In this document: positions 2,875 to 4,232 of the stretch, one piece after another
Numbering within the stretch: the first letter of the stretch is position 1
Layout of the letters: every line of letters begins with the position of its first letter
Virus record (IMG/VR): IMGVR_UViG_2802429253_000005
Location: 1 to 21,994 of that record
Length of the DNA stretch: 21,994 nt
From: a virus
Lineage: Duplodnaviria; Heunggongvirae; Uroviricota; Caudoviricetes
Direction: 5' to 3' (one strand)
The notes under the pieces: generated by a model
The model's input: the letters and a program-made list of their open reading frames with translations, nothing else
Database searches by the model: none
Told to the model about the DNA's origin: nothing
Made by a program: the position numbers and the translations under genes

Positions 2875-2897
2875 GCATAACAATAGACTAGTCTCTG

Positions 2898-2927
2898 GGA
2901 GGCCGTACCAGCGGCCTTTCTTCTTCC
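2898..2927 (+). terminator. Intrinsic terminator after the small coiled-coil ORF
   Basis: Hairpin AGGCCG-TACCAG-CGGCCT followed by TTCTTCTTCCC (moderately T-rich). Confidence 0.4.
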
Positions 2928-3240
2928 CGTAATCTAGTAAAATCGTCGGTTTTTAATCAATTAATTAACTCATCTATTACCAACTCCTGGTTGGTTGCTA
3001 ATGATGTCATAGTGTCGCTAACGGCCTGAATTACTCAGTCCGTTCTTCGCTCAAAGCGGGCTAGAAGGTTAGCTTGCGTCGGACTTGGCGTATTTAAAGA
3101 AGTGCTGGTGGTGACAGGTTATTATGTTCCATTTCTACAGAACAAAATCACAGAAACTATACCCAATAGTTGTATTGAATCACTGACGAGACAGCCTCAT
3201 ATTTATCAGGACTGGTGTACGTCCAATACAGGAGGTTGTG

Positions 3241-3330
3241 GTGCTGGTTCTCAAATGTGCGCTGGCTATTGCTGCTGTAATGGCAATTTATTGCCTTGCT
3301 GTTGTTCTTATGGATCGCCTTTCTGACTGA
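3241..3330 (+). CDS. Possible small hydrophobic membrane peptide (29 aa)
   Basis: Strong AGGAGG (3230-3235) 5 nt upstream of GTG 3241; frame reads (M)LVLKCALAIAAVMAIYCLAVVLMDRLSD, one predicted TM helix with a short charged tail. The track's Cys-rich 74-aa ORF is an alternative frame of the same DNA. Confidence 0.3.
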   Translation: MLVLKCALAIAAVMAIYCLAVVLMDRLSD

Positions 3331-3541
3331 TTTCATATTGGCGAGGTAACGGGAGTTAAGTAGAATGGCTGCGGGTGCTTGAGGCTATCTGTCTCAGGCA
3401 TGAACACCAAAGGCAGATAGAGAAAAGCCCCAGTTAACATTACGCGTCCTGCAAGACGCTTAACATTAATCTGAGGCTCAATCTATGAACGGCAAATCTA
3501 GGTTAGCCTCTTACGTGCCGAAAGGCAAGGAGAAGCAGGCT

Positions 3542-3697
3542 ATGAAGCAGCAAAAGGCGATGCTAATCGCCCTGATCGTCATCTGTTTAACCGTCATAGT
3601 GACGGCACTGGTAACGAGGAAAGACCTCTGCGAGGTACGAATCCGAACCGGCCAGACGGAGGTCGCTGTCTTCACAGCTTACGAACCTGAGGAGTAA
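3542..3697 (+). CDS. hok: Hok/Gef-family type I toxin (membrane-depolarising peptide)
   Basis: 51-aa product MKQQKAMLIALIVICLTVIVTALVTRKDLCEVRIRTGQTEVAVFTAYEPEE is near-identical to the HokD/RelF and Gef consensus as I recall it; GGAG-type RBS upstream of ATG 3542; the track ORF from 3485 is an in-frame upstream extension. Confidence 0.85.
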   Translation: MKQQKAMLIALIVICLTVIVTALVTRKDLCEVRIRTGQTEVAVFTAYEPEE

Positions 3698-3705
3698 GAG
3701 ACCAG

Positions 3706-3785
3706 GCGGGGGAGAAATCCCTCGCCACCTCTGATGTGTCAGGCATCCTCAATGCACCCACACTTAACCCGCTTCGGCGTTTTTC
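3706..3785 (+). other. Structured 3' UTR of the hok transcript (GNRA-loop hairpin plus weak UUCG-loop terminator)
   Basis: GGCGGGGGA-GAAA-TCCCTCGCC hairpin (3706-3727, one G-U pair) and AACCCGCTTCGGCGTTTTT (3766-3785). hok mRNAs are known to carry 3' fold-back elements. Confidence 0.45.
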
Positions 3786-3839: not shown

Positions 3840-4232
3840 ATGAAGAAACTTGTTTTAGTTGCAGGTGTAATGATTGCAACAGTAATGTTGGGAGGGTGTG
3901 CAGCAAAGATCGATCCTGCGTTGAAAGCAGAAGCAATGAAACCACTAACATGTAAAGATGAAAAGCAATGTGACTTTTATTGGAAACGAGCGCAATTCTG
4001 GTTGGCTAATAATTCCTCATGGAAAATTCAAACGGCGACAGACACGCTAATTTCCACTTATAACCCTTCACCAAATAGCCCATTCCTCGCTTATCAAGTG
4101 AGTAAAATGCCAAATGAAGATGGATCTGCAAGAATTTTCATCAAGCCTTTTTGCGATAATATGTTTGGCTGTCAACCAAACCCCTATCAGGCAATTGTTT
4201 CCTTTAAAAACTTCGTTAAAACTGGGCAGTAA
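3840..4232 (+). CDS. Secreted lipoprotein, Cys-rich (hypothetical; possible moron)
   Basis: N-terminal signal peptide MKKLVLVAGVMIATVMLGGC with an L-G-G-C lipobox; GGGAG RBS 5 nt upstream; six cysteines in the mature part; own terminator downstream. Confidence 0.7.
   Translation: MKKLVLVAGVMIATVMLGGCAAKIDPALKAEAMKPLTCKDEKQCDFYWKRAQFWLANNSSWKIQTATDTLISTYNPSPNSPFLAYQVSKMPNEDGSARIFIKPFCDNMFGCQPNPYQAIVSFKNFVKTGQ

Follow-up and report, generated by a model that had tools for sequence, protein, structure and literature searches.

Does the very short open reading frame that precedes hok in some lambdoid prophages encode a protein, and if so, what kind of protein? The question arises from a stretch of 21,994 nucleotides (IMG/VR record IMGVR_UViG_2802429253_000005, here called the window), which is a Qin-like lambdoid prophage with E. 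coli as the host species. A sequence-only reading of this DNA had pointed out a consensus Shine-Dalgarno (SD) sequence followed five nucleotides later by GTG and a 29-codon frame, situated just upstream of hok. The positions given in that reading are correct, and so is the placement next to hok, as can be seen from the following features of the region:

3038-3174, no strand assigned: conserved block upstream of the small-gene promoter, forming the right-hand flank of a cargo-exchange hotspot
3102-3326, plus strand: open reading frame of 74 amino acids, rich in cysteine, overlapping the small gene in the -1 frame; not a gene
3157-3336, minus strand: antisense open reading frame of 59 amino acids; not a gene
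3175-3203, plus strand: promoter-like element TTGAAT-17 nt-CATATT, matching the consensus at 8 of 12 positions, with a predicted transcription start at about 3210
3230-3235, plus strand: SD sequence AGGAGG, 5 nt ahead of the start codon
3241-3330, plus strand: small gene, 29 sense codons and a stop (GTG at 3241, TGA at 3328-3330), with the product MLVLKCALAIAAVMAIYCLAVVLMDRLSD
3338-3366, plus strand: hok promoter TTGGCG-17-TAGAAT, whose -35 box starts 7 nt past the small-gene stop
3373-3697, plus strand: complete hok/mok/sok locus, a neighbour of the small gene and no part of it
3373-3547, plus strand: hok mRNA leader with the sok target (Rfam RF01794, 110 bits, E=1e-25)
3485-3697, plus strand: mok, from the list of open reading frames
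3542-3697, plus strand: hok, from the same list, annotated as hokD in near-identical E. coli genomes

The gene order of the window was read from Pfam matches and from the RefSeq annotation of near-identical genomes. The plus strand starts with a SMODS nucleotidyltransferase and a SLATT effector (535-1981), a recombinase fragment and a 65-aa ORF, after which comes the small-gene region. Downstream follow hokD, a 130-aa lipoprotein-like ORF, DUF968/YdfU, RusA, the antiterminator Q, and the lysis and structural genes. The nucleotidyltransferase (PF18144, E=2e-50) and the two-helix effector (SLATT_4; PF18186, E=6e-74) are, on these matches, a CBASS-like two-gene defence cargo. In other prophages the same slot holds a YobI P-loop NTPase, DUF4145, QueH or DUF2326 and, as judged by translations, deaminase-like, Ham1-type pyrophosphatase-like or SIR2-like proteins. 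Since the cargo differs between prophages at one slot, the slot is a cargo-exchange hotspot with its right flank from about 3038; homology to other prophages begins at about 3036-3048 in most loci, irrespective of the upstream cargo. The block at 3038-3174 has no Rfam match, and its folding on either strand is no better than that of shuffles (z of 0.05 and -0.83). The 130-aa ORF (3840-4232) has an N-terminus resembling a lipoprotein signal (MKKLVLVAGVMIATVMLGGC), has no Pfam or PADLOC match, and stands where most related prophages have rem.

The start of the small gene can be placed from the variation among its copies. The program-made list of reading frames opens one codon earlier, at GTG 3238 (30 aa), within the TTGTG spacer (3236-3240) that separates AGGAGG from the start. 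Codon 3238 varies among relatives (TGG, CCG, TCA, TTG, ATG), but all copies have GTG or ATG at codon 3241, with GTG in 214 of 215. The SD is present as GGAGG or GGAGA at the same spacing in nearly all of the 215 copies and in all eight of the divergent loci that were aligned. A first-order Markov model predicts 0.46 chance occurrences per window of a consensus SD with a start and an ORF of 20-50 codons. When a transmembrane-like hydropathy is added, none of 300 simulations yields such an ORF, and the real window has exactly one. Metagenome gene calls include N-terminally extended forms of 37-165 aa; these were rejected, as 201 of 215 copies have a stop in the same frame 17-19 codons ahead of the start and the upstream DNA is unrelated in divergent loci.

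The peptide had been described as a single transmembrane helix with a short charged tail, and this description holds: the hydropathy fits one helix (GRAVY 1.81; best 19-residue Kyte-Doolittle window 2.70) and the charge of the tail is acidic. MLVLKCALAIAAVMAIYCLAVVLMDRLSD is thus predicted to be one transmembrane helix with a short acidic C-terminal tail. Its membrane topology is uncertain, the N-terminus being basic in this form and acidic in a 34-aa homologue described below. A remnant of a lipoprotein or secretory signal was also considered and rejected: a lipobox is missing (LVLK precedes Cys6), and the same TGA ends the ORF in every context.

Whether the frame is translated can be judged from how its codons change. 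Copies were gathered with a hand-made codon-degenerate DNA pattern, whose matches in the viral collection were all true family members, and substitution events were counted by parsimony on a neighbour-joining tree. Among 44 haplotypes, 42 of 77 events in the peptide frame are synonymous and 35 non-synonymous, with 31% synonymous expected (p=1e-5). In a less filtered set of 36 haplotypes, the counts are 41 and 43 of 84 against the same expectation of 31% (p=5e-4); omega is about 0.47 in this set. Pairwise comparison gives a pN/pS of 0.29. The events of these 36 haplotypes fall on codon positions 1, 2 and 3 in the numbers 26, 16 and 42. On the long branch leading to the copy on the virulence plasmid pINV, about 11-12 synonymous and 7-8 non-synonymous differences were counted by hand from the alignment. 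A second sample was anchored solely on flanking DNA (CATATTTATCAG ... ATTGGCGAG), which avoids selection for intact ORFs. In this sample the frame is open from the conserved start in all 124 copies, and it has 29 codons in 119. The five copies without the original stop read 2-6 codons further: one has 31 codons (stop lost) and four have 35 (an 11-nt deletion took the stop). In strain E700025 a 3-nt deletion is in frame. As judged from these substitution patterns, 3241-3330 is a real protein-coding gene whose amino-acid sequence is under purifying selection. The constraint, so estimated, is moderate (omega about 0.3-0.5), most substitutions being hydrophobic-for-hydrophobic, and selection may ask just for a transmembrane helix plus MDRL.

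The other frames on the same DNA behave differently. The sequence-only reading had considered the cysteine-rich frame artefactual and had proposed to compare its substitution pattern with that of the peptide frame. The comparison, now made, favours the peptide frame: the cysteine-rich frame has 14 synonymous and 66 non-synonymous events, fewer synonymous than random. Its open stretch upstream extends from 36 to at least 97 codons, differing between haplotypes, so that both the events and the unstable N-terminal extent agree with an artefact. The exact 74-aa sequence is absent from a collection of 15 billion proteins, and Pfam, NCBIfam and PHROG give no family match. An origin of its upstream part as a decayed copy of a 27-aa ORF found near hok in other phages (type B, below) was rejected, there being no significant DNA similarity and no motif in the window. 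The +1 frame has 21 synonymous and 59 non-synonymous events. In the 59-aa minus-strand frame the numbers are 21 and 56 (p=0.29), and stops interrupt it in 5 of 29 haplotypes. One antisense frame is also enriched for synonymous change (p=0.001); as it shares wobble positions with the peptide frame and contains stops in every haplotype, the enrichment is a by-product.

The signals in front of the gene are conserved as well. The element at 3175-3203 is the sole site of its kind upstream of the small ORF on the plus strand. In 270 of 274 copies the distance between CATATT and the start codon is constant, and a TTGA-type -35 (TTGAAT, TTGAAG or TTGATT) lies 17 nt upstream of it in 234 of the 274, with differing spacer sequences. 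The element is therefore a plausible sigma-70 promoter for the small gene, with a predicted leader of about 30 nt. At the most divergent loci, homology extends from about 45-70 nt upstream of the start to about 14 nt past the stop. The comparison of loci thus delimits a conserved unit of about 150-170 bp, comprising the sigma-70-like promoter, the leader of about 30 nt, the consensus SD, GTG and 29 codons. The fold of the small-gene mRNA is no better than that of shuffles (z=-0.28), and in the short leader the SD is exposed. In the minimum-energy fold the SD is paired with 3293-3302; sequestration of this kind was rejected, since the fold is no better than shuffles and the pairing is not conserved in the alignment, read by eye. 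No dedicated terminator was found between the small ORF and the hok promoter; the scan gave two weak terminator-like matches, both within the ORF (3265-3295). Transcripts would thus be expected to continue into hok.

The small gene is common in E. coli. A 311-nt block that includes it matches, with identities of 78-100%, in 1972 of the 5426 complete E. coli genomes, and also in hundreds of IMG/VR phage contigs. E. coli C5 has the locus with 99.6% identity to positions 2880-3720 of the window. In a species-dereplicated scan of 185,579 genomes with a pattern specific to the 29-aa form, that form was found in E. albertii, E. ruysiae, Shigella flexneri and three MAG contigs only. These three contigs are short, carry near-identical copies of the locus, and are probably mis-binned. 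A phmmer search of 1.84 billion representatives gave nine matches, all at least 86% identical, and thus no distant relatives; it missed the 34-aa form. Pfam, NCBIfam, PHROG (E up to 10) and PADLOC (E up to 1) give no family match for the peptide; the lone PHROG match, of unknown function, is insignificant (E=0.74). Within the genomes and contigs so searched, the family is found solely in lambdoid prophages and phages of Escherichia and Shigella. The viable temperate phages Tritos, Evi and mEp460 carry the gene.

The description of the gene as unannotated stands for most genomes but not for all records. Among 40 RefSeq E. coli genomes drawn across the identity range, 39 have nothing annotated under the block. 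However, PGAP calls the gene in strain PM22 (WP_000960667.1), and the GenBank records of REL606, BL21(DE3) and others name it conserved hypothetical or membrane protein; REL606 and BL21(DE3) encode the variant MLVLKCTLAIVAVMAIYCLVIVLMDHLSD. Literature queried by accession, peptide string and topic yielded no published description of the peptide. The peptide is thus already in databases as a hypothetical or membrane protein, but, by the searches above, in no described family. In phage HannyBb (PP925841), two minus-strand hypothetical proteins are annotated upstream of hok in place of the small gene (positions 1454-1639 and 1636-1743 of the extracted locus), which is probably an annotation error. 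On pINV of enteroinvasive E. coli (EIEC) and Shigella, an intact, ATG-start small gene lies within the long regulatory region of the protease gene icsP, about 300 nt ahead of that gene, and the variant is present on 542 contigs. K-12 is without the small gene. In the Qin prophage of K-12 MG1655, hokD is the equivalent of 3528-3700 only, located 72 nt after relE, and it lacks the hok promoter, sok and the mok start. K-12 is therefore a poor model for this type of hok and for the small gene.

Phage contigs were also scanned with the hok promoter as the sole anchor, and the DNA upstream of hok was examined at 78 loci. The 29-aa gene is present in 15 of these and a 34-aa gene in 13. The 34-aa gene encodes MSDDISLAMEGALAV[IV]AVVGVYCLVVFLMDRLGN, has its own AAGGAGG, starts with ATG or GTG, and occupies the same position, with replication genes upstream and hok-YdfU-RusA-Q downstream. 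At the DNA level the two ORFs align over 83 nt with 73.5% identity (E=4e-11). Of the 23 codons in the alignment, 14 specify the same residue, and seven of these 14 differ synonymously; despite synonymous changes of codon, the 34-aa homologue retains Y, C, L, V, L, M, D, R and L. This form is routinely annotated as a hypothetical protein, in O157:H7 as well. By this similarity the 29-aa and 34-aa forms are one uncharacterised family with the core A-L-A-x-x-A-V-x-x-x-Y-C-L-x-V-x-L-M-D-R-L. Cys18 of the peptide is conserved. As read from the gene orders, the family is located between the variable anti-phage cargo slot and hok/sok, upstream of the Q antiterminator. The existence of the homologue makes the family older and broader than the 29-aa form.

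How closely is the small gene tied to hok? Among 189 copies, hok follows at a fixed offset in 173, and in all 173 the distance from the small-gene stop to the hok -35 is invariant. In 15 of the 189 the small gene is intact without hok, and a convergent DUF1971 gene and a hairpin are present instead. On pINV the small gene is intact and hok has decayed to its promoter (TTGGCG...TAGAAT is recognisable) and a remnant of the 5' leader. Conversely, about 18% of E. coli hokD-like loci carry the block (2280 of 12,714 places), and at 9 of the 78 phage hok loci only a 3' stub of the small ORF is left. By this distribution the two genes are neighbours by synteny, and either persists without the other. 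A role of the ORF as a leader peptide or uORF of hok was rejected: the hok promoter lies downstream of the ORF, the 15 copies without hok keep the ORF intact, and most hok loci are without it. In 38 haplotypes of hok linked to the small gene there are 28 synonymous and 60 non-synonymous events (omega about 0.8, p=0.2), so that hok has a weaker coding signature than the small gene; the silent sites of hok are probably constrained by the overlapping mok frame and by mRNA structure.

These observations allow the alternatives to be weighed. It is very improbable that there is no gene at all, the DNA being conserved because it belongs to the hok promoter on its upstream side or because the cargo hotspot uses it as a recombination flank, with the open frame incidental. 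The block does mark the boundary of the hotspot, the 3' end of the ORF is its most conserved part and stands alone at the nine loci with a stub, and the sequences compared are closely related. Against this, the synonymous excess is specific to one frame and follows the codon positions, the frame is open in every copy of the unbiased sample, and one indel is in frame. Both the SD and the start codon are conserved, the peptide is preserved in the homologue, whose nucleotide identity is 73%, and loci that have lost hok retain the ORF. A functional coupling to Hok, with the peptide as a membrane partner (enhancer, timer or antagonist) or the gene as a cis element that tunes hok expression, is somewhat less improbable and still doubtful. 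Such coupling would explain the constant 7-nt offset, the similar placement of the 34-aa homologue immediately upstream of hok, the presence in other phages of an unrelated 27-aa transmembrane ORF whose end lies 6 nt short of the hok -35, and the lack of any terminator before hok apart from the two weak matches. Shared synteny can explain the linkage, given that the 29-aa and 34-aa forms hold the same genome position. Moreover, the small gene is truncated or absent at most hok loci and intact without hok in the 15 copies and on pINV, and a role purely in cis is disfavoured by the selection on the amino-acid sequence.

The type I toxin format had been suggested from size and composition, and the peptide indeed is shorter than 60 aa, hydrophobic and with one helix. 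Further examination does not support a toxin: no signal of an antisense or divergent sRNA was found, the leader is short and unstructured, and similarity to Hok or to another toxin family is lacking. It is unlikely that the small gene is the toxin of an unrecognised type I pair, or a membrane toxin timed by the phage, that depolarises the inner membrane. On that reading, its synthesis would be curbed by an undetected sRNA or by absent transcription in the lysogen. The single helix and charged tail fit the format, the GTG start in nearly all copies (214/215) is consistent with it, and hok is its neighbour in a region where genes for defence and abortive infection abound. On the other hand, the minus strand of 3204-3420 has no promoter of at least 8/12, by a scan that is insensitive, having missed the known sok promoter too, and the terminator scan found none on that strand. 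There is no complementary or inverted repeat between the upstream block and the translation start region, sok is the sole Rfam match at the locus, the mRNA fold is no stabler than shuffles with the SD exposed, and the conserved unit of about 150-170 bp leaves scant room for a partner gene. Membership in Hok/Gef was rejected (hhalign probability 1.9% over 6 columns; no Pfam match), and no Pfam toxin family is homologous. As sRNAs of this kind are hard to predict and the scan misses the sok promoter, these negatives are weak, and the toxin reading keeps a small probability rather than none. Overall, our searches gave no sign of a classical type I toxin in the small gene, and we think that it is not an RNA-controlled killer. 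It may be a small membrane regulator, the other format named in the sequence-only reading.

The reading we prefer, and consider probable, is that the small gene encodes a prophage accessory inner-membrane protein, made from its own promoter in the lysogen and acting as a membrane modulator of low toxicity. The product would span the inner membrane with its one helix. Expression in the lysogen would be driven by the gene's own promoter, in the manner of prophage moron genes. During lytic growth rightward early read-through would add transcription, as the gene shares its strand with the replication, Q, lysis and structural genes. The peptide may then modulate a membrane process relevant to the prophage; damage by the neighbouring Hok and the entry of other phages are candidates, and this is the weakest step of the proposal. 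From the distribution, the gene is dispensable for hok and, it appears, for the phage.

Among known systems, the small gene would work like the many single-helix membrane proteins of bacteria and is placed like a prophage moron. Bacterial single-pass membrane proteins of fewer than 50 aa include KdpF (29 aa), MgtS, AcrZ and CydX, which are chromosomal, each with a known partner complex. The small gene resembles them in length, a single hydrophobic helix, a strong SD, frequently missing annotation, and conservation in close relatives only. Unlike them, it is prophage-borne, confined to Escherichia and Shigella, and has no known partner; searches with family profiles and phmmer found no sequence similarity of the peptide to known small membrane proteins. 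The lambdoid morons are small accessory genes with their own promoter that are expressed in the lysogen. The small gene shares with them an accessory slot, here between the replication genes and Q, a promoter-like element, dispensability and a mosaic distribution, but it is much smaller and its hok-linked form has no dedicated terminator. The type I toxins of E. coli (Hok/Gef, Ldr, TisB, Ibs, ShoB, ZorO) are hydrophobic and of about 19-51 aa. ZorO has 29 aa (PMC2887945), the length of the peptide described here. The small gene likewise encodes a small hydrophobic peptide and adjoins a true type I locus, but it is without a detectable RNA antitoxin, a long structured leader or a family match, and its tail is acidic whereas that of type I toxins is basic. 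Like mok, it is a short reading frame physically tied to hok. However, mok lies inside the hok mRNA and overlaps hok, whereas the small ORF precedes the hok promoter and is no part of the hok transcript.

About one third of complete E. coli genomes carry the small gene, and nearly all of the sampled RefSeq genomes have no annotation there. K-12 is the strain behind most profiling of small ORFs. As K-12 does not have the gene, surveys of small proteins in that strain could not have detected it. Its position at the border of an anti-phage swap slot and hok/sok makes the gene a candidate for a new prophage-encoded membrane factor. The annotation can also be corrected in phage records that call spurious ORFs of the opposite strand over the small gene.

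Other tiny ORFs occur near hok. At 19 of the 78 phage hok loci, a member of another, unrelated family of 27-aa single-helix ORFs (MTWPEAFTTVGIAMAVALVVYSICRWG), here called type B, stops 6 nt short of the hok -35. Examples are found in 933W (AF125520 complement, upstream of hokW; L278:796-879), in L279 and in about 60 IMG/VR loci. The ORF is unannotated in 933W, and has GGAGG 7-8 nt upstream. Its coding signature is strong, with 56 synonymous and 49 non-synonymous events where 27% synonymous are expected (p=6e-9), and in some genomes it is fused to an upstream DUF551 gene. In locus L320 and its relatives (type C), a 27-aa type-B-like ORF, the 34-aa homologue and hok stand in tandem. This tandem, together with the 27-aa family before hok in loci of the 933W type, raises the idea that in E. 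coli prophages the hok/sok locus is no two-part module standing by itself but the final member of a cluster of tiny membrane peptides, the small ones acting with or on Hok in the membrane. The cluster would consist of the 27-aa MxWPEAF...YxICRWG family, the 29/34-aa YCL...LMDRL family and Hok, and its small peptides might, for example, set the threshold or timing of killing by Hok in abortive infection or in lysis induced by the prophage. We regard this reading as unlikely, about on a par with the toxin reading. If the peptide does work with Hok, the understanding of prophage hok loci would change. In the type C loci a direct repeat, GGGTAAAAACG, occurs after the first ORF and again before the hok -35, and deletion between the GGGTAAAAACG copies could yield the two-gene arrangement of 933W. 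The same loci have a perfect palindrome with a 9-bp stem, CGATATGGGAATTCCCATATCG, between the 34-aa gene and hok, variants of which are present at other loci.
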